Shown in pieces: positions 36,687 through 64,000 of a stretch of 64,000 nucleotides of DNA. Within the stretch, counting starts at the first letter, position 1, and each line of letters starts with the position of its first letter. Origin of the DNA: Bacteroidota bacterium (GTDB taxonomy: Bacteria; Bacteroidota; Bacteroidia; UBA7662; JAYUJN01); the NCBI GenBank assembly GCA_043765195.1, contig JAYUJN010000001.1, forward strand, positions 6,171 through 70,170, in the 5' to 3' direction. The notes under the pieces are model-generated. The model saw nothing but the letters and a program-made list of their open reading frames with translations, searched no databases and had not been told where the DNA came from. A program made the translations under genes and the position numbers.

Positions 36687-36691
36687 TATTT

Positions 36692-40445: not shown

Positions 40446-41147
40446 GTGAAAAAATACCTAATTCTTTTTCTGCTGCTCGGCGTACCGCCTATTTTTTACA
40501 TTTTTTACGTAACATTTGCCCAAAATAAATACAAAAAACAGCCCTACTACGGCGCACGCCTCGATACTTTTACGGCTTACAACCGCAAAGGAAAACCGTA
40601 CATAGATACCGTTTACCACAAAATAGCCGATTTTAGCTTCACCGACCAAAACAGCCGCACTTACAACAGTACCGATAGCCTGAACGGGCGCATTTATGTG
40701 GCGCATTTTTTTTATGCCACACCCAACGGGTTGAGCAAAAGCCTTATATACCAGTTTACGAGGGTTCAGAGTGCGTTTTCCGACAATCCAAAAGTGCGCT
40801 TGGTTTCCTTTACCGTAAACCCCGAGCGAGATACACCCGAAAAAATGAACTTATTTGCCCAAAAAAATGGCATCAACTACCCAAAATGGGTAGTACTTTC
40901 GGGCAACCGCACGGAGATAGAAACACTTGCCCAAAAGAGTTTTTTGCAGCTAAATAGTGGCTCGCAAAACGACGGGTTTTTCAACTCCTCGAGAGCCATA
41001 GTGATAGACGACGAAGGGCATATACGGGGCATATACGACGGCACATCTGCCCGCCCCACCGACGAAATGATGGGCGCAATACGTGGCTTGCTCATAGAGT
41101 ACACCAACCGCAAGCCGCTTTTGAAGGCACTAAACGCCAAAAACTAA
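40446..41147 (+). CDS. SCO1/SenC-like thioredoxin-fold protein lacking the CxxxC and His copper ligands
   Basis: SCO-like layout (FSFTDQNSRTY ... VSFTVNPERDTPEKM ... WVVLSGNRTEIETLAQKSF ... IVIDDEGHIRGIYDG). The position of FxxxCxxxCP reads FFYATPNGLSKSL, and the usual His position reads NSS. GTG start. Confidence 0.65.
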   Translation: MKKYLILFLLLGVPPIFYIFYVTFAQNKYKKQPYYGARLDTFTAYNRKGKPYIDTVYHKIADFSFTDQNSRTYNSTDSLNGRIYVAHFFYATPNGLSKSLIYQFTRVQSAFSDNPKVRLVSFTVNPERDTPEKMNLFAQKNGINYPKWVVLSGNRTEIETLAQKSFLQLNSGSQNDGFFNSSRAIVIDDEGHIRGIYDGTSARPTDEMMGAIRGLLIEYTNRKPLLKALNAKN

Positions 41148-48214: not shown

Positions 48215-48251
48215 CATAAAAATATGCTTACTACCAAACGAAACTTTTGCG

Positions 48252-48259
48252 TAATTTTG
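48252..48259 (+). promoter_or_regulatory. -7 promoter box for icmF
   Basis: TAATTTTG lies inside the track's longer ORF (48224 start). ATG 48290 lies 31 nt downstream. Confidence 0.45.
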
Positions 48260-48289
48260 CACACATATCACCCTTTACTTTTTATTCTG

Positions 48290-51200
48290 ATGCAAAATGC
48301 CACGCCTTACCAGCCAAAAAACCATATAAGAATTGTTACGGCTGCCGCCCTCTTCGACGGGCACGATGCCGCCATAAACATCATGCGGCGCATCATGCAA
48401 AGCTCGGGCGCAGAGGTAATACACCTTGGGCATAACCGCTCGGTGCAAGAAATAGTAGCCTGCGCCGTACAAGAAGATGCGCAAGCGATAGCCATTACTT
48501 CGTACCAAGGCGGACATACCGAAACCCTAAAATATATGTACGACCTGCTAAAAGAACAGGGCGCAGCGCATATAAAAATATTTGGCGGCGGCGGCGGTAC
48601 TATATTGCCCAGCGAAATAGCCGAGCTGCATAGCTATGGCATTACCCGCATATACAGCCCCGACGATGGGCGCAGCATGGGCTTACAAGGCATGATAAAC
48701 GACTTGCTGCAACAAGCGGATTTTGCACTGGATTATACTGGCTTGCACACCAATACCAACGACAAAAAAAATGTGGCTCGGCTTATATCGTGTGCCGAAA
48801 ACGAACCCGAGCAGTTTTTGGAACTGAAAAAAAACCTACAACCCAATGCCACAAAAACACCGATATTGGGCATTACAGGCACGGGCGGTGCGGGCAAAAG
48901 TAGCTTGGTAGATGAGCTTATTCGGCGGTTTTTGATGGATTTTGACGATAAAACGCTCGCCATTATTTCGGTGGACCCGAGCAAGCGCAAAACGGGCGGC
49001 GCACTGCTCGGCGACAGAATACGCATGAACGCCATAAGCCCCGAGCTGGCTGGCACACGCATTTATATGCGCTCGCTCGCCACCCGCCAAAGCAACCTTG
49101 CCCTAAGTAAATACGTGCAAGATGCCTTAGATGTGGTAGCCGCAGCGGGTTTCGACCTTATTATACTCGAAACTTCGGGCATTGGGCAAAGCGACACCGA
49201 AATTATAGAGCATAGCCACGCCAGCCTTTATGTAATGACCCCAGAATACGGGGCGGCTACGCAGCTCGAAAAAATAGATATGCTCGACTTTGCCGACGTA
49301 ATAGCCCTAAATAAGTTTGACAAACGGGGCGGGCTGGACGCATTGCGTGATGTGAAAAAACAATACCAACGCAACCACAACCGCTGGGAGGAGGATTTAG
49401 ATGTGATGCCTGTGTTTGGTACGATAGCTTCGCAGTTTAATGACCCAGGCGTGAATAATTTGTACCACGCCATACTCAAAAAAATAACGGAGAAAACGGG
49501 TGCCGATTTTAGTACGTCTCATTTTTTGGGCAGCCAAGCCCAAAGCGAAAAAATTTATATTATTCCGCCGCAGCGCACACGCTATTTAGCCGAAATTACC
49601 GAAAAAATACAGGGCTACAACCAACAAACGGTAACACAAAGCCAGATAGCCGACCAACTTTTTGCGCTGACCGAAACCATAAAAATACTGGGCGCAGACC
49701 ACACCAGCGACGATGTGGCAACGAAGCTGCAAAAAAAGTTTGAGACCATACAAAAAGACCTAAATCCGCACCACTGGGACATACTGCAAAACTGGCAAAA
49801 AACGCTGAATAACTATAAGGGCGATGAGTTTGTGTACCAAGTGCGGGGCAAGGACATTAGGGTGCAAACCCGCAGCCGGAGCCTGTCGAACCTAAGCATA
49901 CCTCGGGTGGCTGTGCCTCGCTATACGAGCTGGGGCGACCAGCTTCGGTGGGCGTTGCAAGAGAATTTTGCGGGGGAGTTTCCATATACAGCGGGCGTTT
50001 TTCCGTTTAAACGGGAGGGCGAAGACCCCGCACGAATGTTTGCGGGCGAGGGCTGCCCCGAGCGCACCAACAAACGGTTTCACTACCTAAGCCTGGGTAT
50101 GCCCGCCAAGCGGTTGAGCACGGCTTTTGATAGCGTAACGCTTTATGGCGAAAACCCCGAGCTGCGACCCGATATTTATGGCAAAATAGGCAATGCGGGC
50201 GTGAGCATTTGCTGCCTGGACGATGCCAAAAAACTGTACTCGGGCTTTGATCTCTGCGACCCAAAAACCTCGGTGAGCATGACCATAAACGGACCTGCAC
50301 CGATGCTGCTGGCTTTTTTTATGAATGCCGCCATAGACCAACAATGCGAAAAATACATTGTGGCGCATGACCTGACGCACCTCGTAAACCAAAAACTGAC
50401 CGAAAAATACGACCAAAAAAACCTGCCACGCCCCCAATACAACAGCCAGCCGCTGCCCGAGGGAAACAACGGGTTGGGCTTGCTGCTGCTGGGCATTACG
50501 GGCGATGAAATACTGGAACCCGCCATTTACCAAAAAATAAAAAGTGATGCCATGAGCCAAGTGCGTGGCACGGTGCAAGCCGATATTTTGAAGGAAGACC
50601 AAGCCCAAAATACGTGTATTTTTAGCACCGAATTTGCGCTTAGGCTCATGGGCGACGTGCAAGCGTTTTTTATTGAGAACCAAATAAGGAACTTTTATTC
50701 GGTGAGTATATCGGGTTACCACATAGCCGAAGCGGGCGCAAACCCGATTACGCAGCTTGCTTTTACGCTGTCCAACGGGTTTACTTATGTGGAGTATTAT
50801 TTATCCAGGGGCTTGAATATCAATGACTTTGCGCCTAATTTGTCGTTCTTTTTTAGCAACGGAACCGACCCCGAGTACGCCGTGATAGGTAGGGTGGCGA
50901 GGCGTATATGGGCGAAGGCAATGAAGCTGAAATACGGCGCAAACGAGCGCAGCCAAATGCTGAAATACCACATACAAACGTCGGGGCGCAGCCTGCACGC
51001 CCAAGAAATAGATTTTAACGACATACGAACCACGCTGCAAGCGCTGTATGCCATATACGACAACTGCAACAGCCTGCACACCAATGCCTACGACGAAGCC
51101 ATAACCACGCCCACCGAGGAAAGCGTGCGCCGTGCCATGGCTATACAACTGATTATAAATAAGGAACTTGGCTTGGCAAAAAACGAAAACCCGATGCAGG

Positions 51201-51664
51201 GAGCATTTATAAACGACGAGCTAACGGACTTGGTGGAGGAAGCCGTGATTTTGGAGTTTAACCGCATATCGGAGCGGGGCGGCGTGCTGGGCGCAATGGA
51301 AAATATGTACCAGCGCAACAAAATACAAGAGGAAAGTATGCACTACGAAATGAAAAAACACACGGGCGAGCTGCCGATTATAGGCGTAAATACTTTTTTG
51401 AACAGCAAAGGCTCGCCCACCATACTGCCGCAAGAGGTAATAAGAGCCACCCAAGAAGAAAAGCAATGGCAGCTAAATACCGTAGCCAACCTGCACCAAA
51501 CCCACGCCCAAAAACTACAAGCGGGCTTAGAAAAATTGCAGGAGGCAGCCCTAAAAAACCAAAATATATTTGACTATTTAATGGAGCTAAGTCAGTTTTG
51601 TAGCCTCGGGCAAATGACCAACGCCCTGTACGCCGTAGGCGGGCAATACAGGCGGAATATGTAG
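48290..51664 (+). CDS. icmF: fused isobutyryl-CoA mutase (B12-binding domain + MeaB-like GTPase + mutase barrel), IcmF
   Basis: B12-binding DxHxxG ([10 protein letters not shown]), P-loop [17 protein letters not shown], and a long methylmalonyl-CoA-mutase-family C-terminal domain. Start moved to [16 protein letters not shown]. Confidence 0.9.
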
Positions 51665-51989: not shown

Positions 51990-53000
51990 ATGAAAGATTT
52001 GACCGTTTCGGCTATTGACCGACAAAACATAATTAATAATAAAAAAGCAGTACAGAATATACAAACTTATTTGGGTGTTACTGGTATGCTTTTTCAAGGT
52101 GAGTATAAATTTACACGACAACAAATTATAGAATTTTACGCTATAGACAATTCAACCATAGATAGATATTTATCTCAAAACCAAGAAGAATTAAAACATA
52201 ATGGTTATGTAAATCTAAAAGGGAAAGCACTTAAAGAATTTAAAGATGAATTTGGTTGGATGTTGCAGGAGGGAGCTAAGGCTCCGCAACTTGGCATTTT
52301 CAATTTTCGTTCATTTTTAAATTTGGGAATGCTGCTAACAGAGAGTGAAAAAGCTAAAGCATTAAGGAGTAAAATATTGGATATTGTAATTGACACTCTT
52401 AACCAAAAGTTAGGTGGCTCAACAAAGTATATTAACCAGCGTGAAGAAGATTTTTTAATTGCAATGGCTCGTGAGCCCGTTTATAGAAAAGAATTTACTG
52501 AAGCATTAAATAAATATTTGGAAATGGGGAACTATAAATATGCTGTTTATACCGATGCTATTTATAAAGCCATTTTTCTTGAAAAATCAGCTGAATATAA
52601 AGTGATTTTGAAGTTAGAAGAAAAAGAAAATATGAGGGACACAATGTATTCTGAGGTTCTTCGGTTGATTGCTTCGTTTGAAGTAGGAATAGCAGATGCA
52701 ATGAAGTTAAAATCTGAAAAACTGAATAGGAAACTGCAACCACCAGAATTAGATGAATTGATAGACGAATTTTCAAAACAACGATTTTGGACACCACAAA
52801 TTGAAGATGCAAGAAGCAAAATGGCAAGCCGAGATTATGGTTTAAGGAATATTATTCATGAAAGGTTAAAACCCTATATCAATTCACTAAATGCAGTGGA
52901 TTATGACAGATTTTTAGGAGATAAAAGTAAAGACCTTATACAAAGAGTAACAGAAAATCCTGACCTATTAGATGTTTTCAAACGATTAAAAGACCGATAA
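51990..53000 (+). CDS. hypothetical DNA-binding-like protein, 336 aa (possibly distant RhuM-like), upstream partner of Doc
   Basis: N-terminal HTH-like stretch KFTRQQIIEFYAIDNSTIDRYLSQNQEEL followed by a long helical region. Its stop TAA is separated from the doc ATG by a single nucleotide. The RhuM resemblance is weak and from memory only. Confidence 0.5.
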   Translation: MKDLTVSAIDRQNIINNKKAVQNIQTYLGVTGMLFQGEYKFTRQQIIEFYAIDNSTIDRYLSQNQEELKHNGYVNLKGKALKEFKDEFGWMLQEGAKAPQLGIFNFRSFLNLGMLLTESEKAKALRSKILDIVIDTLNQKLGGSTKYINQREEDFLIAMAREPVYRKEFTEALNKYLEMGNYKYAVYTDAIYKAIFLEKSAEYKVILKLEEKENMRDTMYSEVLRLIASFEVGIADAMKLKSEKLNRKLQPPELDELIDEFSKQRFWTPQIEDARSKMASRDYGLRNIIHERLKPYINSLNAVDYDRFLGDKSKDLIQRVTENPDLLDVFKRLKDR

Positions 53001-53001
53001 C

Positions 53002-53448
53002 ATGGCATTTGCATATTTTGATACTGCTCGTGCTATAACGATGCACGACGAAATAATAAATCAATCAGGTGGGTCGTTAGGCATTTTGAATATAGGCTTA
53101 TTAGAGAGTGTTATAGAGCATATTCAAAATGATTTTTATTATCCAAAATTTGAACACAAACTTACGCACCTATTCTTTTCAATTAATAAAAATCACAGCT
53201 TTCAAGATGGAAATAAAAGAGCTTCAATTGCATTGTCTGCTTATTTTTTGGAAATCAATAATTGTTCATTTAAAACAGAACAATTTATAGCTGAAATGGA
53301 AAACGTAGCAGTGGATGTAGCAGACAACAGAATTGATAAAGATTTGCTTTTTGAAATAATCCATTCAATAATTTACGAAGACGATTACACCGAAGAATTA
53401 AAATTGAAAATAATTTATGCCAAGGGATTTGATAACGAAGACCAATAA
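53002..53448 (+). CDS. doc: Fic/Doc-family toxin (death-on-curing type)
   Basis: Fic motif HSFQDGNKRAS (53194-53226) and N-terminal HDEIINQSGG, typical of Doc. 148 aa. Confidence 0.8.
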   Translation: MAFAYFDTARAITMHDEIINQSGGSLGILNIGLLESVIEHIQNDFYYPKFEHKLTHLFFSINKNHSFQDGNKRASIALSAYFLEINNCSFKTEQFIAEMENVAVDVADNRIDKDLLFEIIHSIIYEDDYTEELKLKIIYAKGFDNEDQ

Positions 53449-53670
53449 TCTTACAATTCAACAGCCCCCCCAACTCCAACATTTCCCCTCCACCCACACT
53501 CTGCGCTCCGCCCTGTGTTTCTAACAAAAGTTTTTTGGTGCGGTTGAAAATTACTTGCGTTTTTATTGTTTTTTTGCTTAATTTTGGGCTTGAAAATATG
53601 CTATAATTTGCGCCTTTTTGCAGTTTATAGCCCAAACCCACCACCTACGACCAAACCTAACGCCTACGCT

Positions 53671-55590
53671 ATGAGCCTATTAGTAAAAACATTTAGCCTA
53701 TTTACGGACTTTGATGCCAATTTGTTCAAATCGGGCAAGCACTTTAAATTATACGAAAAACTCGGCTCGCACATCGTAACCCACGACGGCGAAACGGGCG
53801 TTTACTTCGCCGTGTGGGCACCCAACGCCAAAAATGTAAGCGTTATCGGCAACTTTAACCACTGGCAGCCCTACCAGCACAACCTCTGCGCCCGCTGGGA
53901 CGGCACGGGCATCTGGGAGGGTTTTGTGCCACGCCTCGGCAAGGGCGAAGTGTATAAATACCACATTCACAGCCAACACAGCGATTTGCGCTTAGAAAAA
54001 GCCGATCCCTTTGCCTTTATGTGGGAAGTGCCGCCCAGCACCGCATCTATCGTTTGGGATTTGGATTACAAATGGAAAGACAAAAAATGGCTGGCTGCCC
54101 GCCTCAAAAAAAATGCGCTCGACCAACCATTTTCCGTGTATGAAATGCACATAGCCTCGTGGCGGCGCAAGCTCGACGAGGGCAATCGGTCGTTTACCTA
54201 CTTAGAGCTTGCCAAAGAACTGGTGGCGTACCTAAAAGCCATGCACTTTACGCACGTGGAGTTTTTGCCCGTAATGGAGCACCCCTACGGTCCGAGCTGG
54301 GGCTACCAGAGCTTGGGCTACTTCGCACCCTCGAGCCGTTTTGGCACGCCCCAAGAGTTTATGCAGCTCGTAGATGCGCTGCATGAGGCGGGCATCGGCG
54401 TTATTTTAGACTGGGTGCCCTCGCATTTCCCAGGCGATGCCCACGGCATACACAAGTTCGACGGCACCAGCCTCTACGAACACGAAGACCCCCGCCAAGG
54501 CTACCACCCCGACTGGAACTCCTGGATATTTAACTACGGGCGCAACGAAGTGCGCAGTTTTTTAATAAGCAGCGCAGGCTTTTGGTGCGATTTGTACCAT
54601 GCCGACGGGCTACGGGTAGATGCCGTAGCCTCCATGCTCTACCTCGATTATTCACGCAAAGAGGGCGAATGGATACCCAACCAATACGGCGGCAGAGAAA
54701 ACTTAGAAGCCATTTCGCTGCTCAAAGAACTAAACGAATACCTCTACACCAGTTTTGAAGGCATACAAACCATCGCCGAAGAAAGCACGGCGTTCCCCAT
54801 GATTTCTCGCCCCGTGTATTTGGGCGGGTTGGGTTTTGGCATGAAATGGATGATGGGCTGGATGAACGACACCCTCCAATACTTTAAACGAGACCCATAT
54901 TACCGCCAATACCACCAAGGCGAAATCACATTTAGCCTCGTGTACGCATTCACCGAAAATTTTATGCTGCCCTTTTCCCACGACGAAGTGGTGCACGGCA
55001 AAGGCTCGCTACTAAGCCGTATGCCTGGCGATGCGTGGCAAAAGTACGCCAATCTCAGGCTGCTGTACGCCTATATGTTTTCGCACCCAGGCACCAAGCT
55101 CATATTTATGGGCTGCGAGTTTGGGCAATTTACCGAGTGGAGCCACGAGGGGCAGCTACCCTGGGAACTCACCCACCAACCCAACAACCAAGGCATTCAA
55201 AAGCTATTTGCGGAGCTAAACAGGCTATATACAACCGAAAAAGCGTTTTTTGAGCTGCAATTTTCGCCCGAGGGCTTCGAGTGGATAGACCACAGCGACA
55301 CCCAAAACAGCATAATTAGCTACGTGCGAAAAAGCAAAAACGGCAAAGACCAAATAATGGTAATATGCAACCTAACGACCATACCACGAAACAATTATAG
55401 ATTGGGCGCAACCAAAGCAGGCACGTGGCAGCAAATACTAAACACCGACGACCTTGCCTACGGTGGCAGCCAATACCAAATAGCGCCCCAAGCCAAAACC
55501 GAAGCCATAGAAAGCCACGGCAAAGCGCAATCGGTGCTGCTAAACCTACCGCCGCTCGGTGTAATTATGCTCAAACACAGCAAAGGATAA
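53671..55590 (+). CDS. glgB: 1,4-alpha-glucan branching enzyme
   Basis: GH13 motifs HADGLRVDAVASMLY, IAEESTAFP and LPFSHDEVVHGK. Start moved to ATG 53671 (MSLLVKTFSLFTDFD); the 35 upstream codons of the track ORF look non-coding. Confidence 0.9.
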   Translation: MSLLVKTFSLFTDFDANLFKSGKHFKLYEKLGSHIVTHDGETGVYFAVWAPNAKNVSVIGNFNHWQPYQHNLCARWDGTGIWEGFVPRLGKGEVYKYHIHSQHSDLRLEKADPFAFMWEVPPSTASIVWDLDYKWKDKKWLAARLKKNALDQPFSVYEMHIASWRRKLDEGNRSFTYLELAKELVAYLKAMHFTHVEFLPVMEHPYGPSWGYQSLGYFAPSSRFGTPQEFMQLVDALHEAGIGVILDWVPSHFPGDAHGIHKFDGTSLYEHEDPRQGYHPDWNSWIFNYGRNEVRSFLISSAGFWCDLYHADGLRVDAVASMLYLDYSRKEGEWIPNQYGGRENLEAISLLKELNEYLYTSFEGIQTIAEESTAFPMISRPVYLGGLGFGMKWMMGWMNDTLQYFKRDPYYRQYHQGEITFSLVYAFTENFMLPFSHDEVVHGKGSLLSRMPGDAWQKYANLRLLYAYMFSHPGTKLIFMGCEFGQFTEWSHEGQLPWELTHQPNNQGIQKLFAELNRLYTTEKAFFELQFSPEGFEWIDHSDTQNSIISYVRKSKNGKDQIMVICNLTTIPRNNYRLGATKAGTWQQILNTDDLAYGGSQYQIAPQAKTEAIESHGKAQSVLLNLPPLGVIMLKHSKG

Positions 55591-55622
55591 AAAGCTGGTT
55601 TACACCAAGCCCAAAAACCAAT
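55492..55622 (+). repeat. copy A of a direct repeat (functional 3' end of glgB plus ~30 nt downstream)
   Basis: 55495-55590 aligns without gaps to 58159-58254 (88 of 96 nt identical). Weaker, gapped similarity continues about 30 nt past the stop. Confidence 0.8.
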
Positions 55623-55697
55623 TTTGCCAAAAAAATATTCTTGCTTTGTTTCATTTGCCCCAAACACCTACAACACAGGCATTTGGGGTAAATTCTC

Positions 55698-57878
55698 TTA
55701 ATTCAGTTCCTCAAAATGCACCTGCCCAGTAGCAATGTCGTGGTAGGCGCTTATAATGCCAATCTCTTTGTGGTCTATTCTGTGCTTCAAATACGGGCTT
55801 TGCTCCAATATTTCTTTCACCGAATTGTTGGCATTTTGTTTGGTCGTTTTTTCCATGAGTTCATCTTCGCTGGCGTTTTCAGGTTTTGGGTAGCAACCAC
55901 ATTCGGCGGCTACCTTCTGAATTTTTGAGGTAACGGTATGAATGTTGTCGTCCATTACATTGGCTAACGAAAGCGCCACAGCACCGCAGCTCGAATGCCC
56001 TTTTACCACAATTAGTTTTGCGCCCAGTTTTTTTACCGCAATTTCCAAGCTCCCAATTATTTCGGGGTTTATAATGTTGCCCGCAATGCGAACGGTCAAT
56101 AAATCGCCCAAATTTGCATCAAACAATATTTCGGGCGAGGTTCTGCTATCGATGCAGCTAACCAAAACCGCCATCGGGTTTTGCCCCATAGAAGTAGCTT
56201 TTACCTGATGCAAATAGTGTTTGTCGGTGCCGTTTCCATCTACAAAGCGTTTGTTGCCTGCTTTTAGCAACTCCAAAGCGTCCAGTGGTTTTAGTTTTTG
56301 TTGGGTTTCTTTGTCCAACACATTTATAAACTGTACGTTGTCTTTTAAATTATATTGCCCTTTTATGCCAAGCAAATTCAACTGAATGTTTCTTTCGGGC
56401 GCAATGGTGGTTTTAAAATCGTCTATTATTTCACGCACATCATTGTCTATAAAATTGGCGTAGGTAGCATCTATCACCACTTTTGAGCCTTTGGGTATGC
56501 TCCAAAGCGTTTCTTTTATGGTTGCTTTGTTCAAAAATGAGGTTTGGTTGGGCAGCTCCAATTTTATAACCTGACCGATGTTCAGTTTGCTTTCGTTTCT
56601 TAAAAATGGGTTTTTAAAATTGCTCCTTAGTATGTAAAACACCGCAGTAGCCAAACCTATGATTACGCCGATTAATAAATCGGTAAAAACGATTGCCAAA
56701 ATAGTGATGACAAAAGGCACAAACTGCGGTCTGCCTTTTTGGTACATTTCTTTAAACAAAGATATTTTGGTTAGTTTATAACCCGTCATAAGCAGTATGG
56801 CAGCCAGCGATGCCAAAGGAATTTGGTTTAATAATGCACTTAAAAACAACACAAAAACCAACAAAAATGCGCCGTGCAATATCGCCGAAAGTTTGGTTTG
56901 GTTGCCCGCCTGCACATTTACAGAGCTACGAACAATTACCGAAGTTACGGGCAAACCGCCCAGCAATCCCGCCATCATGTTGCCTATGCCTTGCGCCACC
57001 AATTCGGTGTTTGGGGGCGAGTTTCTTTTGTGCGGGTCCAGTTTATCTACGGCTTCGATGTTTAGCAGTGTTTCCAGCGATGCCACAATGGCGAGCGTAA
57101 GCGCCACGAGCCAAACTTGGTAGTTCGATAGGTTGGTTAGGTTGGGTAAATGAAAATAGCCCGATAGGTTGTTGGTATCAATGGCTGGAATGTTTACCAA
57201 GTGGGATTGTTGAACGGCTAAAAAAGGCACAAAATTCGTAAAAATATAATTTAAAAACACCCCAAATATAACCACAAACAAAGATGCTGGCAACAGTTTT
57301 ACATTTTTTAGTGGCGTTTTGTCCCAAAAAAGGATTACCAAAATGGATAGTAAACTTATGGCAATTGCGCCTGGGGTAATGTGGTTTAGGGCATTTAATA
57401 TTTCCGAAAAACTGTTTTCGCCATCAACCTGAAAAAAGGCACTTTCGCCCTCGGGGTCTTTGTCGTAACCCAAGGCGTGCGGTATTTGCTTGATAATCAA
57501 CAAGATGCCAATAGATGCCAAAAGCCCTTTAATTACATTTGAGGGTACAAAGTTGGCTACCAAACCTGCTTTGGCTATGCCCAGCAGTAACTGAATAATG
57601 CCTGCCAAAAATACCGCAGTTAGAAACACCTCGAACGAACCGAGCTTTGTGATTGAGGCGAGTACCACGGCGGCAAGCCCAGCGGCGGGTCCGCTCACGC
57701 TTGTTTGCGATTGGCTTATAAACCCCACCACAATGCCACCAATGACCCCAGAAATGATGCCCGAAAGTAGCGGTGCGCCCGATGCCAAGGCGATGCCCAA
57801 GCACAGCGGAATTGCTACCAGAAATACAACGATACTGGCTGGTAAGTCGCTTTTGATGTTTCCGAATAATTTTTTCAT
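55698..57878 (-). CDS. SulP-family anion transporter fused to STAS-like region and C-terminal beta-carbonic anhydrase
   Basis: SulP membrane domain, STAS-like segment (IKLELPNQTSFLNKATIKE ... VVIDATYANFID). The C-terminal ~200 aa carry beta-CA motifs VSCIDSRTSPE and KGHSSCGAV. Confidence 0.85.
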   Translation of the reverse strand: MKKLFGNIKSDLPASIVVFLVAIPLCLGIALASGAPLLSGIISGVIGGIVVGFISQSQTSVSGPAAGLAAVVLASITKLGSFEVFLTAVFLAGIIQLLLGIAKAGLVANFVPSNVIKGLLASIGILLIIKQIPHALGYDKDPEGESAFFQVDGENSFSEILNALNHITPGAIAISLLSILVILFWDKTPLKNVKLLPASLFVVIFGVFLNYIFTNFVPFLAVQQSHLVNIPAIDTNNLSGYFHLPNLTNLSNYQVWLVALTLAIVASLETLLNIEAVDKLDPHKRNSPPNTELVAQGIGNMMAGLLGGLPVTSVIVRSSVNVQAGNQTKLSAILHGAFLLVFVLFLSALLNQIPLASLAAILLMTGYKLTKISLFKEMYQKGRPQFVPFVITILAIVFTDLLIGVIIGLATAVFYILRSNFKNPFLRNESKLNIGQVIKLELPNQTSFLNKATIKETLWSIPKGSKVVIDATYANFIDNDVREIIDDFKTTIAPERNIQLNLLGIKGQYNLKDNVQFINVLDKETQQKLKPLDALELLKAGNKRFVDGNGTDKHYLHQVKATSMGQNPMAVLVSCIDSRTSPEILFDANLGDLLTVRIAGNIINPEIIGSLEIAVKKLGAKLIVVKGHSSCGAVALSLANVMDDNIHTVTSKIQKVAAECGCYPKPENASEDELMEKTTKQNANNSVKEILEQSPYLKHRIDHKEIGIISAYHDIATGQVHFEELN

Positions 57879-57925
57879 TTATAAATTTTAGTAAAATATG
57901 GTGTTTTGCCTTTATTTTTGGCATA

Positions 57926-57933
57926 CAAATATA
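57926..57933 (-). promoter_or_regulatory. -7 promoter box for the SulP-CA gene
   Basis: The reverse strand reads TATATTTG. The ATG lies 48 nt downstream. Confidence 0.4.
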
Positions 57934-58155
57934 AGCTAAAATGGTGGAAAATCAAGCCGTGTTCAAAGTTTTATCTGTATTTTGGCTAAAAAGAAATTGA
58001 ATATAAAGAGTTTTAACAATTTGTAAATTAAGTGGTTAATTGTTTTTGGGTAATTGTGTTGGGTGTTTAAAATATACAAAAGCCGTGATGCAGCTAAGTT
58101 GGTTTTGGGTGTGAAACACATTGCCACAAAAGCTCAAAACCCAACATAAAAGCCA

Positions 58156-58254
58156 GCTAAAACCGAAGCCATAGAAAGCCATGGCAAAGCACAATCGGTG
58201 CTGCTAAACCTACCGCCGCCGGGTGTAACTATGCTCAAACATAGCAAGGGTTAA
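58156..58254 (+). pseudogene. orphan 3' fragment of a glgB gene (copy B of the direct repeat)
   Basis: Translates in frame as (A)KTEAIESHGKAQSVLLNLPPPGVTMLKHSKG*, versus KTEAIESHGKAQSVLLNLPPLGVIMLKHSKG* for the real glgB end. An in-frame TAA at 58147-58149 truncates it upstream, and no start codon is present. Confidence 0.75.
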
Positions 58255-58388
58255 AAGCTGTTTTTATACAAAACAACCGAAAAAACCAACAAAAGCTAAA
58301 AATGCGATTGAGTTTAGAAACTTTGTTAAATTGTTAAAATGTCTATGTGTTCTGCGCCCTTGCACCCAAAACCATAAAATATCGGCAT

Positions 58389-58396
58389 TATATTTG
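58389..58396 (+). promoter_or_regulatory. -7 promoter box for the 146-aa ORF / SulP-Dab operon
   Basis: TATATTTG. ATG 58421 lies 25 nt downstream. Confidence 0.4.
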
Positions 58397-58420
58397 TTGC
58401 TCTAACAAAAATGGGCAACA

Positions 58421-58861
58421 ATGCCCAAAATCAAGTGTTCAACCAACACAAAAAGTAGTTTACAAATGCAAGGCGCACAAAGAAAATTCTTATTTTTTGC
58501 TTTATTCACAGCTCTCTGCTGCTTTACCCAAGTGTTTTATTTGGGTAGCAACAAGCAAGCCGCTGTGCATAGCACCCAAATAAATGAGGTTAGCCAGCTC
58601 GTAAGCCACGCACCCAACTCGGACGTAAAAACGACCGAACTCGACTTTAAAAAGCCACAAATTTTTATAGAGGAAACTGCGCAAGACGATACCAGCGCTC
58701 CCGAAAAAAACTTTGGTGGCTCTAACCAACTTTTTAATGGTAGCAAAAACGAATTTGGCGCACATTTAAGCCAAATTTTTACTAATTTCTTTGCTATTTT
58801 AGGTATCTCTACCATAGTTCCACTTTACTTGCTTTACAACAAGTTAAAGGTTTTTTGTTAA
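58421..58861 (+). CDS. hypothetical protein with N-terminal and C-terminal hydrophobic segments (146 aa)
   Basis: ORF begins 25 nt after a perfect -7 box. It has an N-terminal hydrophobic stretch FLFFALFTALCCF and a C-terminal stretch FFAILGISTIVPLYLLY. No family recognised. Confidence 0.4.
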   Translation: MPKIKCSTNTKSSLQMQGAQRKFLFFALFTALCCFTQVFYLGSNKQAAVHSTQINEVSQLVSHAPNSDVKTTELDFKKPQIFIEETAQDDTSAPEKNFGGSNQLFNGSKNEFGAHLSQIFTNFFAILGISTIVPLYLLYNKLKVFC

Positions 58862-58924
58862 TTAATTTACGGCAATAAAATTACTCCAAAAGTAATTTGG
58901 GCTACCACCAAGGCATACCCCACA

Positions 58925-58968
58925 GCACGCTCGCACATTTTGTTTGCGCAGAGCCGTGCGTATTTTTT
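58925..58968 (+). terminator. imperfect GC hairpin followed by a T-run, upstream of the SulP start (terminator or attenuator-like)
   Basis: GCACGCTCGC (58925-58934) pairs with bulges to GCGCAGAGCCGTGC (58946-58959), then TATTTTTT (58961-58968). It lies 35 nt upstream of ATG 59003. Confidence 0.3.
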
Positions 58969-59002
58969 ACAAATCGTAACCAAAAAATTAATTAATCGAA
59001 CA

Positions 59003-60598
59003 ATGAACAATCAAAAAAACTACCCTGTCGATGGTTTCGCAGGCTTAAAACAAAATATTTCTACCGATGCCATTTCTGGCTTCATCGTATTTTTACTGGC
59101 ATTGCCCCTAAGTTTGGGTATCGCCAAGGCATCAGAGTTTCCGCCGCTCATGGGGCTGCTCACAGCCATGATAGGCGGGTTGGTGGTGAGCCTAATTTCT
59201 GGCTCATTGCTTACCATAAAAGGACCAGCCGCAGGGCTTATCGTAATTGTAGCTGGTGCCGTAACCGATTTTGGCGGCGGCGATACTGGCTGGCACCTTG
59301 CGCTGGGCGCTATGGTGGTGGCTGGCTTGATACAAATTTTATTTGGCGTGCTTAAATTAGGGCGATTCTCTGATTTTTTTCCGTTGGCTGCCATACACGG
59401 TATGCTGGCTGCCATAGGCATTATAATTGTAGCCAAACAAGTACCAGTGCTTATGGGCGTGAACCCCGCACTAACCAAGGGCAAAGCACCGCTGGAACTG
59501 CTGGCAAATATCCCCAATTTTATAACGCACCTAAACCCAACGGCTACGCTTATTGGCGTGGTTAGTTTGGTTATTATGATGGGTTTGCCGATGATAAAAA
59601 ACAAATTTGTGAAAAAAATACCAGGTTCGCTCCTCGTACTTATGGTAGCCATACCCGCAGCTTTATTTCTACAATTTAAAACCACCCAGCCCGCTTACAC
59701 ACTCGTAAAAATAGGCAACTTACTGGACAATATAAAAATAAACGTAGATTTTTCGGGCATACACCAAATGGGTACTTTTGTAAAATACGTAATTATGTTT
59801 GCGCTGGTGGGTACGCTCGAGTCGTTGCTTACCGTAAAAGCCATAGACATGATGGACCCCCACAAACGCAAATCCAACACCAACAAAGACATTATAGCCA
59901 TAGGTGTAGGCAACGTAATATCGGCAATATTGGGCGGTTTACCCATGATTTCGGAGGTAGCACGTAGCTCGTCCAACGTAAACAACGGCGCAAAAACCAG
60001 GTGGGCAAACTTTTTTCACGGGTTTTTTATCTTAGTATTTGTGCTTTTTGCAGCCCCACTCATAGAAATGATACCCAACGCCGCTTTGGCAGCCATGCTT
60101 ATAAGCGTGGGCATAAAATTGGCGCACCCAAAAGAGTTTATCCACGTGTTTAAAATCGGAAAAGAACAATTAGCCATATTTTTAGTAACCATTTTCTTTA
60201 CTTTATCCCAAGATTTATTGGTAGGCATCGCCGCAGGTATTGCCCTAAAAATGATTGTACACGTGATAAACGGCGCACCCATCAGCTCTTTGTTCAAAGC
60301 CGTGGTATCTATCTCATCGCACGAAGATGATTATTTGGTAGAAATAGAACAATCGGCGATATTCAGCAATTTTATAGGCATAAAAAGCCAATTGGAGAGC
60401 ATACCACACGGCAAAAACTTGACCATAAACCTTTCCAAAGCCAAACTAATAGACCACTCGGTGATGGAAAACCTGTACCATTTTCAGGAGGATTACATAG
60501 CCGAAGGTTATAGGTGCGTGCTCGAGGGCATACAAAACCACAGACCACTGTCGGCGCACGAGCTGGCTGCCAGAAAAATAACCCGCCTAACCGTTTAA
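59003..60598 (+). CDS. SulP-family anion transporter with C-terminal STAS domain (BicA-like architecture)
   Basis: Start moved to ATG 59003 (MNNQKNYPVDGFAGLKQNI). SulP membrane core and STAS-like C-terminus (YLVEIEQSAIFSNFIGIKSQLESIP ... LSKAKLIDHSVMENL). Confidence 0.85.
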   Translation: MNNQKNYPVDGFAGLKQNISTDAISGFIVFLLALPLSLGIAKASEFPPLMGLLTAMIGGLVVSLISGSLLTIKGPAAGLIVIVAGAVTDFGGGDTGWHLALGAMVVAGLIQILFGVLKLGRFSDFFPLAAIHGMLAAIGIIIVAKQVPVLMGVNPALTKGKAPLELLANIPNFITHLNPTATLIGVVSLVIMMGLPMIKNKFVKKIPGSLLVLMVAIPAALFLQFKTTQPAYTLVKIGNLLDNIKINVDFSGIHQMGTFVKYVIMFALVGTLESLLTVKAIDMMDPHKRKSNTNKDIIAIGVGNVISAILGGLPMISEVARSSSNVNNGAKTRWANFFHGFFILVFVLFAAPLIEMIPNAALAAMLISVGIKLAHPKEFIHVFKIGKEQLAIFLVTIFFTLSQDLLVGIAAGIALKMIVHVINGAPISSLFKAVVSISSHEDDYLVEIEQSAIFSNFIGIKSQLESIPHGKNLTINLSKAKLIDHSVMENLYHFQEDYIAEGYRCVLEGIQNHRPLSAHELAARKITRLTV

Positions 60599-60612
60599 AC
60601 GACACTAATAAA

Positions 60613-61377
60613 ATGAAATATTTCAAAATAATAATAGTAGCCGCCCTTGTATGTATGAGCGGCTACACCGCCCAAGCCCAGCGCAACACAGTAATAAACA
60701 ACAATGCGTGGCTGGTATATAACGGCGACCACAAAGTAAGCGATAAGTGGGGCGTTCACTTAGAAATGCAAGTGCGCCGCAACGAGCTGCTATCGAAACC
60801 CATGCAGCTACTGCCAAGGGTGGGCATTAACTATTACTTCAATCCGCAAGTAATGGCTACGGCTGGCTACGCCTACGTAGAAACCGACCCCTACGGCAAG
60901 TTTCCAGTAACCACCAAGTTTGGGGAGAGCCGTGCTTGGGAGCAAATACAGATAAAAAACCAGTTTAATAGGGTGGAGCAAGTAAACAGAATACGCCTCG
61001 AGCAGCGGTTTGTAAACCTGCCCGTTCGCTCGGCAACCGACGGCACGTACAAGCCCGGACCAGCCGTTTATTCCAACCGCATACGCCTACAAAACAGGAT
61101 AGCCGTGCCTTTAAACGGAAAAACGATTGTAGATAAATCGGTGTACGTTACGGCTGCCGACGAAATATTTGTGAATTTTGGTAAGAATGTAGGCAAAAAT
61201 ATTTTTGACCAAAACCGTGCCTACGCCGCCATAGGCTACAAAGTACCCAAACTGGGTAGGGTAGAGGCTGGCTATCTGTGGCAGGTAATAGCCAAATCGG
61301 ACGGCATACGCATAGAGAGCAACTACACGCTGCAAGTGGGCATTTTTTCTACCATCGATTTTTATAAAAAAAAGTAA
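60613..61377 (+). CDS. DUF2490-like protein with signal peptide (predicted beta-rich, possibly outer-membrane)
   Basis: Start moved to ATG 60613 (MKYFKIIIVAALVCMSGYTAQAQ). NNNAWLVYNGDHKVSDKWGVHLEMQVRRN matches my recollection of DUF2490. Its stop TAA is directly followed by the dabA ATG. Confidence 0.6.
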   Translation: MKYFKIIIVAALVCMSGYTAQAQRNTVINNNAWLVYNGDHKVSDKWGVHLEMQVRRNELLSKPMQLLPRVGINYYFNPQVMATAGYAYVETDPYGKFPVTTKFGESRAWEQIQIKNQFNRVEQVNRIRLEQRFVNLPVRSATDGTYKPGPAVYSNRIRLQNRIAVPLNGKTIVDKSVYVTAADEIFVNFGKNVGKNIFDQNRAYAAIGYKVPKLGRVEAGYLWQVIAKSDGIRIESNYTLQVGIFSTIDFYKKK

Positions 61378-63939
61378 ATGAACACGCACACACAAACCGA
61401 TAACACGTTCGATGCGCACGAAGTGCTGCACGAACTGGCGCACTATTTGCCCTCGCAAACGCCCATAAAAGACTTTATACACCACAACTCGCTGCACGCT
61501 TTTCAGGATATGAAGTTTTTTGATGCCATTTTTAAAGCCTCAAAAATATTTGGCTACCAAGCTACTTTGCAGCTCGCCGATTATAGAACCATGTATGAGC
61601 AAGGGCGCATTAGCCCCGAGGTACTAAACAGGCTTATTTTGGACAAAAAAGGTGTGGCGCAGCTCATTAACTGGCAACAAAAACTACTAAGCCAAACCTA
61701 TAATGTAGAAAGCGATGCCAGAATAGGCACATTGCGCCAAAACTGGAAAAAGCACTACAAAATAGACATGGACACAATGGTTCACCCTACTTTGTTTCGG
61801 ATACTTTGTAGCTATTTGGACCAAGGCATCGCCATTTGGGATTTTCCTACCAACGGAAAAGGCTTGATAGCGGGCTTAAAAACGCTGGAAAAAAACAGTT
61901 TTACCAGTTTTTTTAAAACCAAAACGGCTCGCAAGCTATTGCTATCCGATGACTGCACCATAGAATCGTTGCTTAAAATGGTGGTGGGCAACCCCAGCTA
62001 CTACAAACAATATTTGTACGACCAGCAGTTTGCGCACAGAGGCTGGTCGGGCATGGCGGCTACCTTAGAGCATAGCCCAGATACCTTGCTCAGTCCCAAA
62101 AAAATAACGCTGGAAGAGGTAGTGCTGCTCGACCTTTTGCTGGAAATAGACAACCTAACCTACAAATTTGGCGTGGGCAACTGGCAGCCACTGGCGGAGT
62201 ACCTAACCGAGCCGCCGATGGAGTTGCTGGATAGCGTGCCGCCCACGGAGCTGCAAGAGGTATATGAACTGTGGCAAAAAGCCTTTGAGTGGAGCTACTA
62301 CGACCAAGTACTGTCGGGCATAAGTGCCTTAAAAGACAAAAAAAGTAGGGAATTGCCGCAAAAAGAAGCGTACCAAAAAAGTTTTCAAGCCATATTTTGT
62401 ATAGATGAGCGAGAATGCTCCTTGCGCCGCCACGTGGAGCAGTTAGATACCGAATGCGAAACGCTGGGTATGCCAGGGTTTTTTGGGGTGGAGTTTTATT
62501 TTCAGGCAGAAAACGCCAAGTTTTACGACAAAATGGCACCTGCGCCCGTTACGCCTCGTTTTCTTATAAAAGAGCAAAACAACAACAAATCACGCCCGCA
62601 CGAGGCTTTTTATAATTCTAAGGCGCACACGCTTTTGGGCGGATATTTGGCATCGTTCACCTTTGGTTTTTGGGCTATTGGAAAGCTAATACGCAACTTG
62701 TACGCACCCAAAATGACACCCGCCATTTCCAATGCTTTTGCGCACATGCACAAATACTCGAGCCTGAGCATAGAAAACAAAGACGTAAACGACCAAGAAA
62801 ACGGGCTGCAAATAGGCTTTACCACCACCGAAATGGCGGATAGGGTAGAGGGCGCACTGCGCAACATTGGGCTTATAAAAAACTTTGCGCCGCTTATATA
62901 TTTGGTATCGCATGGGGCAAGTACAGCCAACAACCCGCACCACGGCGCATACGATTGTGGTGCGTGCAGCGGCAGACCAGGCTCTGTGAACTCAAAAGTG
63001 ATGGCATTTATGGCGAACCACCCCAAGGTAAGGGAAATATTGGTGCAAAGAGGCATAACGATACCAGATACTACGCAGTTTTTGGGGGCGATGCACGATA
63101 CTTCTGCCGACGAAATGCAGTTTTATGAATTAGATGCGCTCACAACCGTAAACCAAGAAGCACACAAAAACAATGAAATAACGTTTGAAAATGCTTTAAA
63201 TTACAACGCAAAAGAACGCTCTCGCAGGTTTGCCTCCATAGATACCAAAGGTAGCTTGGTAAAAGTACGCCAAAAAATAAAAGAGCGCTCGGTGTCGTTT
63301 TTTGAGCCACGCCCAGAGCTTGGGCACGGCACCAATGCCCTGTGTATTATAGGCAACCGCAGTTTTACCAAGGGTTTGTTTTTGGATAGGCGTGCGTTTA
63401 TGAACTCCTACGACTACAAAACCGACCCCGAGGGCAAGCTCTTACTGGGTGTGATGCGCCCCATAGGTCCGGTTTGCGGCGGTATAAACTTGGAGTACTA
63501 TTTTTCGAGGGTAGATAACTATAAGCTGGGGGCGGGTACTAAGCTCTCGCACAATGTAATGGGGCTTATTGGTGTAGCCAACAGCAGCGACGGCGACCTA
63601 CGCCCAGGCTTGCCCATACAAATGGTAGAAGTGCACGACCCCGTGCGCCTAATGGTAATAGTGGAGCATAGCCCCGAAATAGTACTAAAAGCAATAAACA
63701 CCCAAGCCGATACCTACCAGTGGTTTCAAAACGAGTGGGTGCATTTGGTGGCGGCTTGCCCTGTAACGAACAAGTATTTTTACTTTAAAAATGACCAGTT
63801 TCAGGAATATAAGCCAGGCTTTGTAGAAATACAAAACAAAAAAAACATGATTGACCTCATAGAATCGGCTAAACTAATGAAATCCAATAAAATAGTAGAT
63901 TCTACCAAAGAAAACCTCCCAATCCACATTTTACAATAA
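61378..63939 (+). CDS. dabA: DUF2309-family protein, inorganic carbon pump subunit DabA
   Basis: 853 aa. IKDFIHHNSLHAF. Beta-CA-like zinc site residues are conserved in the same spacing as described for DabA: FCIDERE (Cys341, Asp343; 62398-62406), His512 (62911-62913) and YDCGAC (Cys527, Cys530; 62956-62967). Confidence 0.85.
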   Translation: MNTHTQTDNTFDAHEVLHELAHYLPSQTPIKDFIHHNSLHAFQDMKFFDAIFKASKIFGYQATLQLADYRTMYEQGRISPEVLNRLILDKKGVAQLINWQQKLLSQTYNVESDARIGTLRQNWKKHYKIDMDTMVHPTLFRILCSYLDQGIAIWDFPTNGKGLIAGLKTLEKNSFTSFFKTKTARKLLLSDDCTIESLLKMVVGNPSYYKQYLYDQQFAHRGWSGMAATLEHSPDTLLSPKKITLEEVVLLDLLLEIDNLTYKFGVGNWQPLAEYLTEPPMELLDSVPPTELQEVYELWQKAFEWSYYDQVLSGISALKDKKSRELPQKEAYQKSFQAIFCIDERECSLRRHVEQLDTECETLGMPGFFGVEFYFQAENAKFYDKMAPAPVTPRFLIKEQNNNKSRPHEAFYNSKAHTLLGGYLASFTFGFWAIGKLIRNLYAPKMTPAISNAFAHMHKYSSLSIENKDVNDQENGLQIGFTTTEMADRVEGALRNIGLIKNFAPLIYLVSHGASTANNPHHGAYDCGACSGRPGSVNSKVMAFMANHPKVREILVQRGITIPDTTQFLGAMHDTSADEMQFYELDALTTVNQEAHKNNEITFENALNYNAKERSRRFASIDTKGSLVKVRQKIKERSVSFFEPRPELGHGTNALCIIGNRSFTKGLFLDRRAFMNSYDYKTDPEGKLLLGVMRPIGPVCGGINLEYYFSRVDNYKLGAGTKLSHNVMGLIGVANSSDGDLRPGLPIQMVEVHDPVRLMVIVEHSPEIVLKAINTQADTYQWFQNEWVHLVAACPVTNKYFYFKNDQFQEYKPGFVEIQNKKNMIDLIESAKLMKSNKIVDSTKENLPIHILQ

Positions 63940-63945
63940 ATTATT

Positions 63946-64000
63946 ATGCAACAGATACTTGCTCTTTTTATACTTATTCCATTGCTGGGGCTTATAATAA
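63946..64000 (+). CDS. dabB: start of NuoL/Mrp-like membrane subunit, probable DabB (partial, runs off the right edge)
   Basis: ATG lies 6 nt after the dabA stop. It reads MQQILALFILIPLLGLII, the hydrophobic N-terminus typical of NuoL-like proteins. Assignment rests mainly on context. Confidence 0.5.
   Translation, partial: MQQILALFILIPLLGLII

Follow-up and report, generated by a model that had tools for sequence, protein, structure and literature searches.

The closest described relatives of the locus analysed here are the DAB systems for uptake of inorganic carbon (Ci). Structures confirm that DAB performs vectorial hydration that is coupled with the proton motive force (PMF) (PMC13144422; bioRxiv 10.64898/2026.05.01.722082), and two types, DAB1 and DAB2, are distinguished (bioRxiv 10.64898/2026.05.01.722082; bioRxiv 10.1101/476713). 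DabAB2 rescues Escherichia coli that is free of carbonic anhydrase (CA), the uptake is sensitive to carbonyl cyanide m-chlorophenyl hydrazone (CCCP), and mutation of the DabA2 residues C351, D353, H524 and C539 kills DAB2 function (bioRxiv 10.1101/476713). According to Fan et al. (2021), MpsAB and CA 'rarely coexist', and a CA beside a Ci accumulator is counter-productive (PMC8552792). SulP transporters linked to Ci genes in cyanobacteria and proteobacteria are importers of bicarbonate (PMC10880623), and the DUF2490 proteins are listed in TCDB as putative porin family 1.B.81 (PMC4827864). Here we describe a locus in which members of all these families stand side by side, at the end of a 64,000-nucleotide stretch of DNA from a Bacteroidota bacterium (hereafter the window). 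The window is part of the ENA metagenome contig ERZ27314324 k141_715639 (134 kb), and its locus carries the label L001. On the plus strand it encodes a SulP transporter (SulP2), a DUF2490 protein, DabA and the start of DabB; on the minus strand it encodes a SulP transporter fused to a beta-CA.

The reading that we favour, with a probability of roughly 0.6, is that SulP2-DUF2490-DabA-DabB, perhaps preceded by the small gene orf146, is a Bacteroidota Ci operon of the DAB2 type that supplies heterotrophic carboxylations, and that the fusion is a separate accessory. An earlier note on the window had pointed to three Ci-related modules in this locus, and these do cluster there. Its observation is confirmed: all open reading frames (ORFs) were recovered at the same coordinates, and the CA motifs and the spacers of 14, 0 and 6 nt were correct. 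Pfam likewise found four of the families that the note had named: PF10070, DUF2490, Pro_CA and, for each of the two transporters, Sulfate_transp. Its interpretation is partly supported.

A DAB2-type operon

The plus-strand genes of the system are the following.

59003-60598, plus strand: SulP2, 531 aa, B-type SulP/SLC26 transporter, C-terminal STAS-like domain likely; Pfam Sulfate_transp
60613-61377, plus strand: DUF2490 protein, 254 aa, candidate anion channel; PF10677, 3.6e-47, 160.9 bits
61378-63939, plus strand: DabA, 853 aa, DAB2-type, predicted cytoplasmic beta-CA-like subunit; PF10070, 3e-212
63946-64000, plus strand: 5' end of dabB, 18 codons; full gene on the source contig

The DabA protein matches PF10070 with 707.5 bits over residues 18-788, which covers profile positions 2-747 of 747, and aligns with DabA2 of Halothiobacillus neapolitanus (9RD0_A) at 4e-62. 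Its residues C341, D343, H512 and C527 align with C351, D353, H524 and C539 of DabA2, and these zinc-site residues are invariant in 18 Bacteroidota homologues. None of the NCBIfam models matches DabA. The complete dabB gene (L001 12569-14437) encodes 622 aa with Proton_antipo_N and Proton_antipo_M domains; the protein matches NdhF/NuoL of complex I at 4e-39 and DabB2 (9RD0_B, 551 aa) at 5e-22. There is no ORF, and hence no DabC, between dabA and dabB, as in the DAB2 subtype. Homology thus shows DabAB to be a DAB2-type pair with a predicted intact zinc site.

The genes are tightly packed, with 14 nt between the stop of SulP2 (60598) and the ATG of DUF2490 (60613), 0 nt between DUF2490 and DabA, and 6 nt between the DabA stop (63939) and the dabB ATG (63946). 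That SulP2, DUF2490, DabA and DabB form one operon rests on these spacers and on the conserved gene order, because the promoter and terminator consensus scans gave results at chance level. Between 55.4 and 61.5 kb, the sigma-70 promoter consensus had 13 matches versus 11.6 in shuffled sequence, and the intrinsic terminator consensus had 11 versus 8.7.

Conservation across Bacteroidota

A DabA profile scan over one genome per GTDB species returned at least 575 encoding stretches, and the best 80 loci were mapped. All 80 belong to Bacteroidota, in the Chitinophagaceae, Saprospiraceae, Lewinellaceae, Flavobacteriaceae, Sphingobacteriaceae, Cyclobacteriaceae and Chryseolinea. Partner genes were counted in the 49 loci with full flanks, i.e. 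at least 3 kb upstream and at least 4.5 kb downstream of dabA.

DabB beside DabA: 49 of 49 full-flank loci
SulP beside DabAB: 48 of 49 full-flank loci
beta-CA beside DabAB: 40 of 49 full-flank loci
DUF2490 beside DabAB: 10 of 49 full-flank loci

The earlier note had allowed for an arrangement unique to this strain; the counts show conserved synteny, and the linkage of SulP, CA or DUF2490 to DabAB covers at least four orders of the phylum. In the 80 loci, median intergenic gaps range from 7 to 33 nt, and DabB lies 3' of DabA in 79 of them with a median gap of 7 nt. Across Bacteroidota, dabAB is almost never alone: a SulP gene belongs to the operon, together with a beta-CA or, in a CA-less variant, with DUF2490.

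Two operon types can be recognised. The A-type, which is the majority, has the order SulP_A - beta-CA - DabA - DabB. Its SulP_A shares 50-57% identity with the fusion's transporter part, and its CA is either CA1, which is fusion-like (41-46%), or CA2, which is Can-like ('LWIGCSDSRVP'). The B-type has no CA and is found in the window and in loci L004, L030, L043, L048, L054, L077, L087 and L095. Its SulP_B is 63-78% identical to SulP2 (measured for the DabAB-adjacent SulP of L004, L030, L043, L048, L054 and L077) and is usually accompanied by a DUF2490 protein of the same subfamily (50-57%). In L054 and L087, the order SulP-DUF2490-DabA-DabB is the same as in the window. A CA adjoins 45 of the 67 SulP_A genes versus none of the 9 SulP_B genes. 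Because CA pairs strictly with one SulP clade, the fusion can be taken, by a 'Rosetta-stone' argument, to mirror a genuine partnership of SulP and CA.

The stand-alone CAs are evidently cytoplasmic, because none of the 65 has a signal peptide; a periplasmic location of the operonic CAs was considered and rejected for the same reason. A CA co-encoded with DabAB, as in L009, L017 and L029, contradicts the generalisation, derived from Firmicutes, that CA and MpsAB/DAB are rarely found together and that their combination is counter-productive.

All five protein families are already known, and the fusion family has already been named. A full-text literature search found no description of the phylum-wide SulP-(CA)-DabAB operon, of the A/B dichotomy or of the link of DUF2490 with SulP/DabAB, although such a search is a weak negative.

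Several loci depart from the common pattern. A Chryseolinea metagenome-assembled genome (MAG) has two convergent DabA-DabB pairs (L036 9905-18916), one with SulP_A and the other with SulP_B, and its second DabA is 55% identical. In L013, L018, L057 and L087, DabA or DabB is split over two or three ORFs, representing pseudogenes or assembly frameshifts. Furthermore, an additional gene of 247 aa without a Pfam match lies between SulP and DUF2490 in L087 (6243-6986; Logan assembly of SRR23378605).

SulP2 and its possible substrates

SulP2 matches Sulfate_transp over residues 21-396 (8.8e-66). The earlier note had also assigned it a STAS domain. As an HMM match this did not hold, since on the SulP2 C-terminus PF01740 gave E=0.0052 and 17 bits against a cut-off of 22.6; folds and full-length alignments do back a STAS-like domain. 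The NCBIfam DauA model covers residues 17-512, with a score below its cut-off, and the alignment with SLC26Dg (5DA0) covers residues 263-509.

SulP2 is a candidate bicarbonate importer, by the precedent of BicA and by its near-obligatory linkage to DabAB. The earlier note had cited SulP-CA fusions as proposed bicarbonate transporters and counted SulP among its Ci-handling modules, which is not supported in that form: bicarbonate as the substrate follows from genomic context, and scores with the NCBIfam BicA model NF050096 are 152.7 bits for SulP2 and 142.8 bits for the fusion, where the equivalog cut-off is 880. Neither SulP matches any NCBIfam equivalog.

An alternative explanation might be that the SulPs are anion:bicarbonate exchangers, for which DabAB, with or without CA, would make bicarbonate as the counter-ion. 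The imported anion could be sulfate, a dicarboxylate or similar, passing the outer membrane (OM) via DUF2490. Many SLC26 proteins are indeed anion:bicarbonate exchangers. The SulP-DabAB linkage in 48 of 49 loci is more than the redundancy of two Ci routes would require, and the position of CA, next to SulP_A in 45 of 67 cases or fused to a SulP, is what one would expect of a transport metabolon. Moreover, both SulPs obtain a slightly higher score with the model for DauA (dicarboxylate) than with that for BicA, and close homologues of the fusion are found in ars/metal or RND efflux surroundings, not in carbon contexts. Yet all model scores are far below any equivalog cut-off, neither the 80 loci nor the window contain linked genes for sulfate assimilation or dicarboxylate metabolism, and the Ci-linked SulPs of cyanobacteria and proteobacteria import bicarbonate (PMC10880623). 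We therefore consider anion exchange improbable, and retain bicarbonate import for a Ci operon as the preferred role of SulP2.

The DUF2490 protein

The N-terminus of the DUF2490 protein, MKYFKIIIVAALVCMSGYTAQAQ, was judged by eye to be a signal peptide, and all full-length DUF2490 proteins in the surveyed loci have one. The AlphaFold2 (AF2) model, built from a 35-sequence alignment, has a pLDDT of 89.9 and shows a helix at residues 2-16 followed by 12 long strands. Foldseek matches in the PDB were solely OM barrels (CymA, the beta-domains of EspP/BrkA, NanC and PcoB), all with E > 1e-3 and TM-scores of 0.4-0.5. The predicted fold class, a 12-stranded OM beta-barrel, is clear, and the matches single out no specific relative. 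NCBIfam has no model that matches the protein. Residues R126, R128, E130, R132, R156 and R158 are invariant and R162 is nearly so; they alternate with hydrophobic residues along two strands, which suggests that the lumen is charged and rich in arginine.

Depending on the surveyed locus, the DUF2490 gene precedes dabA, follows dabB, separates SulP_A from CA1 or comes after SulP_B, which makes at least four positions. These positions, together with the existence of two divergent subfamilies, indicate that DUF2490 was recruited repeatedly. It also occurs beside stand-alone SulP::CA genes in L082/L083. The association gives DUF2490 a first functional context, as a candidate OM channel for anions or bicarbonate. 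As a side observation, the DUF2490 protein of L087 (P0259) is attributed by NCBI to a Phycisphaerales MAG.

The SulP::CA fusion in a variable slot

The features between glgB and the operon are listed below.

53566-55590, plus strand: glgB, 1,4-alpha-glucan branching enzyme; CBM_48, Alpha-amylase, Alpha-amylase_C
55491-55592, plus strand: direct repeat, copy 1; final 32 codons and stop of glgB
55602-58154, no strand: strain-specific 2.55-kb segment with the SulP::CA gene and its upstream region; not in sister strains L088, L089 and L091
55698-57878, minus strand: SulP (SLC26)::STAS-like::beta-CA fusion, 726 aa, with a likely STAS-like part; supported by Pfam, NCBIfam, PDB and AF2
58155-58256, plus strand: direct repeat, copy 2; non-coding relic of a glgB 3' end

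In the fusion protein, residues 9-390 match Pfam Sulfate_transp (2.4e-60), residues 570-720 match Pro_CA (6.1e-32) and residues 513-722 match the NCBIfam carbonic anhydrase PRK15219. The CA motifs C575-I-D577-S-R579 and H628-S-S-C631 are invariant or nearly invariant across 32 homologues. Matches in the PDB include SLC26Dg, BicA and Rv3588c, and the CA domain superposes on Rv3588c with a TM-score of 0.84 and a root-mean-square deviation of 2.9 A. The STAS HMM gave no match on the linker. In the AF2 model (mean pLDDT 71), residues 426-503 form a beta-beta-alpha-beta-alpha-beta unit, and Foldseek alignments of the model comprise 520-560 columns with structures that include transmembrane and STAS domains, versus 426-430 with transmembrane-only constructs. 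A compact STAS-like domain is likely in both the fusion and SulP2, judging from the modelled fold of the fusion and from the alignments of SulP2 given above. The STAS domain of SLC26 transporters is cytoplasmic. Because the CA comes after the STAS-like domain, the fused CA should be cytoplasmic too.

SulP-carbonic anhydrase fusions were reportedly proposed as bicarbonate transporters by Felce and Saier in 2004. At least 120 homologues share the architecture of the present protein, and the family, with 61-84% identity, is found in Bacteroidota, in Massilia/Pseudoduganella (Oxalobacteraceae) and in cyanobacteria; its members already bear the NCBI product name 'bifunctional SulP family inorganic anion transporter/carbonic anhydrase'. 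The closest homologue (79%; L082/L083) stands in convergent orientation to a DUF2490 gene that has 54% identity with the window's, and lies beside an RND efflux system. A comparison of Ppx that addressed the relatedness of L082 gave 26% identity, and these genes are evidently not orthologous. Another homologue, with 72% identity (L084/L085 10001-12175), lies inside a cluster of ArsR/ArsP/ACR3/LMWPc and cation-efflux genes.

Four contigs (L088-L091) represent sister strains of the window, with flanks of 95-98% nucleotide identity and DUF2490 proteins of 99% amino acid identity. None of them has the SulP::CA gene. In blastn comparisons, homology with the window ends at 55601 and picks up again at 58155/58253. 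The gene order in L088 and L089 is icmF-...-glgB-[190-aa ORF, 270-aa ORF]-orf172-SulP2-DUF2490-DabA-DabB-CotH, of which L090 and L091 are shorter stretches. At the same spot, the sister strains carry an unrelated 1.5-kb cassette of two ORFs with its own direct repeat of 35-42 nt (copies at 6089-6123 and 7632-7666 in L088). PADLOC found no match for the two ORFs, and neither this cassette nor the window's segment carries a recombinase.

The direct repeat in the window is 102 nt long, with 91% identity between the copies and a spacing of 2664 nt. Seven codons differ, five of them synonymously and two non-synonymously, and copy 2 is 90% identical to the glgB 3' end of L088. As the differences are mostly synonymous, copy 2 resembles the end of a diverged, functional glgB, not a decayed local duplicate. 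The glgB gene itself, which starts at 53608 in the ENA gene call (660 aa) and has 97.5% nucleotide identity with that of L088, anchors the variable slot on its left and lies outside the Ci system.

These results identify the SulP::CA gene as a recent, strain-specific insertion into a cassette slot downstream of glgB. The fusion is regarded as an accessory because the sister strains are without it and because the 102-nt direct repeat flanks it. The earlier note had presented the fusion as facing the operon within one gene combination; as a conserved design this does not stand, since the fusion is absent from four otherwise collinear contigs. A strain-level insertion offers no basis for a designed divergent regulon.

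Possibly, the juxtaposition is due to chance, the glgB-proximal slot being a cassette hot spot and the fusion functionally unrelated to the operon, such that the 'stacked locus' would be no unit. A different, unrelated cassette occupies the site in the sister strains, the slot upstream of glgB is strain-variable too and contains a PDC-M59 candidate, the nearest homologues of the fusion are located elsewhere in their genomes, and a fusion lies within 6 kb of DabA in just 1 of the 80 loci. In three other Bacteroidota lineages, however, a SulP::CA fusion lies directly 3' of dabB on the same strand:

L009, 14443-16629, same strand as dabB: SulP::CA fusion, gap of 45 nt
L096, 9001-11166, same strand as dabB: SulP::CA fusion, gap of 102 nt
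L097, 8705-10870, same strand as dabB: SulP::CA fusion, gap of 15 nt

Three such lineages are far above the expectation for one gene among thousands, and unfused SulP_A plus CA is the commonest partner of DabAB. Despite its recent position in the window, the fusion therefore shows a recurrent affinity for DabAB loci, and pure chance is a possible but rather unlikely explanation. An accessory that is functionally related to the Ci operon is the reading we prefer.

Proposed function and the carbonic anhydrase paradox

In the mechanism we propose, DabB would be a NuoL/NdhF-like proton channel through which the PMF drives DabA. At a buried zinc site of the beta-CA type, DabA would convert cytoplasmic CO2 one way into bicarbonate, an activity modelled on DAB2 of H. 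neapolitanus. External bicarbonate would be imported by SulP2 in a cation-coupled manner, and the DUF2490 barrel may provide an OM route for bicarbonate and other small anions. The resulting high cytoplasmic bicarbonate pool could supply biotin carboxylases, carbamoyl-phosphate synthesis, purine synthesis and anaplerosis, for an aerobic heterotroph of dilute habitats at ambient CO2. The minus-strand fusion would be a separately promoted accessory that entered the strain-variable slot between glgB and the operon. As a transporter whose cytoplasmic face bears a CA that interconverts bicarbonate and CO2, it would give the CA-less B-type operon the equivalent of the SulP_A plus beta-CA pair of the A-type. 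In line with the earlier note, which had seen neither RuBisCO nor carboxysome genes, a Pfam search of large ORFs found no RuBisCO, carboxysome or carboxylase gene in the window or in the 8.5 kb downstream.

Several points weigh against this interpretation. A cytoplasmic CA is expected to dissipate the bicarbonate pool (PMC8552792), yet CA is operonic in 40 of 49 loci, which implies that simple 'accumulation' may account for only part of the picture. For both SulPs, the scores are lower than the equivalog cut-offs of BicA and DauA, and SulP proteins transport many different anions. In the DUF2490 subfamily of the window, 4 of 6 sampled members occur in unrelated contexts, including an iron/TonB cluster. 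DabB is nearer to NdhF/NuoL than to DabB2. Finally, consensus scans and Rfam revealed no promoter, terminator or regulator of the operon with confidence.

The CA paradox might be resolved if these enzymes are type II CAs inhibited by bicarbonate; CA2 is Can/HICA-like, and the fused CA is closest to Rv3588c. A role of SulP_A-CA in exchange or as a metabolon, or a role in pH regulation, are other possible solutions.

A bolder interpretation is that SulP, cytoplasmic beta-CA and DabAB are one coupled machine, with DUF2490 as a fourth tier, instead of redundant Ci routes. In one version, Ci would be cycled and retained without a carboxysome, with a CA gated by bicarbonate; in another, bicarbonate made at the expense of the PMF would energise SulP-mediated anion exchange. 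If true, this would explain why a CA and a vectorial CA are found together in 40 of 49 loci, but we think it has only a small chance of being correct.

Alternatively, the cluster might serve pH or ion homeostasis by cycling CO2 and bicarbonate, which would shift acid equivalents in poorly buffered or alkaline water. DabAB would admit protons while making bicarbonate, and SulP would export or import the bicarbonate. DabB belongs to a family of the Mrp/NuoL antiporter type, a cytoplasmic CA co-encoded with DabAB fits pure accumulation poorly, and the carriers are, according to their record titles, mainly MAGs from freshwater, soil, glacier streams and wastewater. Against this, neither the 80 loci nor the window have linked genes for a Na+/H+ antiporter or for other responses to pH stress, and characterised DAB/Mps systems complement the loss of CA, which is a carbon-supply phenotype. 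A function in pH homeostasis is therefore very unlikely.

The conserved operon, interpreted here as supplying bicarbonate to heterotrophic carboxylations, offers a testable lead on DAB in heterotrophs, on the SulP-CA partnership and on DUF2490. A cultured carrier suited to genetics is available in Flavobacterium laiguense LB2P30 (locus L029), where the gene order is SulP_A-DUF2490-CA1-DabA-DabB-CA2.

Small upstream gene, candidate signals and genomic surroundings

The region between the fusion and SulP2 contains one further gene, and each transcription unit is preceded by one candidate -7 box.

57926-57933, minus strand: candidate -7 box TATATTTG, 48 nt upstream of the fusion ATG; motif match only
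58389-58396, plus strand: candidate -7 box TATATTTG, 25 nt upstream of orf146; motif match only
58421-58861, plus strand: orf146, 146 aa, two hydrophobic segments; orphan

The boxes come from a scan with the Bacteroidota -7 motif TAnnTTTG, which has 118 sites in the window versus 81 +/- 9 in dinucleotide shuffles. The box at 58389-58396 is the sole plus-strand match between the fusion gene and SulP2. Rfam, run on the whole window at gathering thresholds, gave zero matches, and hence there is no known riboswitch or leader RNA upstream of the operon.

The earlier note had placed orf146 at the head of a run of plus-strand ORFs. The run is indeed co-directional as listed, and orf146 itself proved to be an orphan without a family. 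It has no match in Pfam or NCBIfam, and is not present in any of the 80 other DabA loci. An exhaustive HMMER search of 1.8 billion representatives retrieved only the copy of the sister strain, which is 93% identical. Its ratio of non-synonymous to synonymous substitution rates (dN/dS) versus L088 is 0.29, a value calculated from 26 substitutions only. The ORF may encode a small membrane protein confined to its lineage, or may belong to a leader of ~600 nt.

The other genes of the window are those of an ordinary chromosome, with the housekeeping proteins ParAB, PolA, PheT, PurH, MreB, PPK1 and RecR, and also a C25 peptidase, typical of Bacteroidota. On the source contig, the gene 3' of dabB encodes a CotH/LTD protein. 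Just upstream of the variable region lies an IcmF-like fusion of 1146 aa (B12-binding / MeaB GTPase / methylmalonyl-CoA-mutase; 48224-51664, plus strand). The slot between icmF and glgB is strain-variable as well. In the window it holds a pair of genes with a low GC content (0.36; 51990-53448, plus strand), encoding a protein of 336 aa and a Fic/DOC protein of 148 aa, which PADLOC reports as the candidate defence system PDC-M59 (A 5e-112, B 2e-29). In the sister strains it holds other ORFs, of 164 and 284 aa. A search for flanking repeats around this slot found none. Elsewhere in the window, an MbnP-family protein lies beside a di-haem cytochrome c peroxidase (MauG/MbnH-like), with SCO1/SenC nearby (35586-37429, minus strand; 40446-41147, plus strand), a group that looks like a copper-handling cluster.

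Comparison with known systems

The DAB2 system of H. neapolitanus is similar to the present pair in its PF10070 subunit with a Cys/Asp/His/Cys zinc site and its PF00361 membrane subunit. The A-then-B gene order, the tiny spacer and the lack of DabC are also shared, and DabA (853 aa) is close in length to DabA2 (827 aa). Tcr_0853/0854 of Hydrogenovibrio crunogenus and MpsAB of Staphylococcus aureus are grouped with DAB2 as the closest two-gene systems. In contrast with DAB2, the host here is a heterotrophic member of the Bacteroidota without carboxysome or RuBisCO genes nearby (window plus 8.5 kb), and DabB, with 622 aa, is closer to NdhF/NuoL. Furthermore, the Bacteroidota operon adds a SulP (48 of 49) and a second partner, which is a cytoplasmic beta-CA (40 of 49) or the predicted OM barrel of DUF2490.

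For the transporters, the nearest characterised system is BicA, the cyanobacterial Na+/bicarbonate symporter (6KI1). It has the same SLC26 fold, with phmmer E-values of 1.5e-26 (SulP2) and 1.1e-26 (fusion) and a Foldseek TM-score of 0.76 over the transmembrane domain, and in both cases there is genomic linkage to Ci genes. It differs in sequence, with ~25% identity and equivalog scores of 143-153 bits versus 880.

The small monomeric 12-stranded OM channels of the NanC/KdgM family and PcoB resemble DUF2490 in having a signal peptide, a predicted 12-stranded barrel of ~230 residues, and conserved basic residues that alternate on the strands. However, they share no sequence similarity with DUF2490, for which the channel role is putative.

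The fusion protein agrees with other SulP-CA fusions, such as Rv3273 of Mycobacterium tuberculosis, in its SLC26 transmembrane domain, its likely STAS-like linker and a beta-CA at the C-terminus in which the CxDxR and HxxC motifs are intact. As a protein it has no essential distinction from them. The novelty lies in where it is found, next to a DabAB operon on a strain-specific insertion flanked by repeats.

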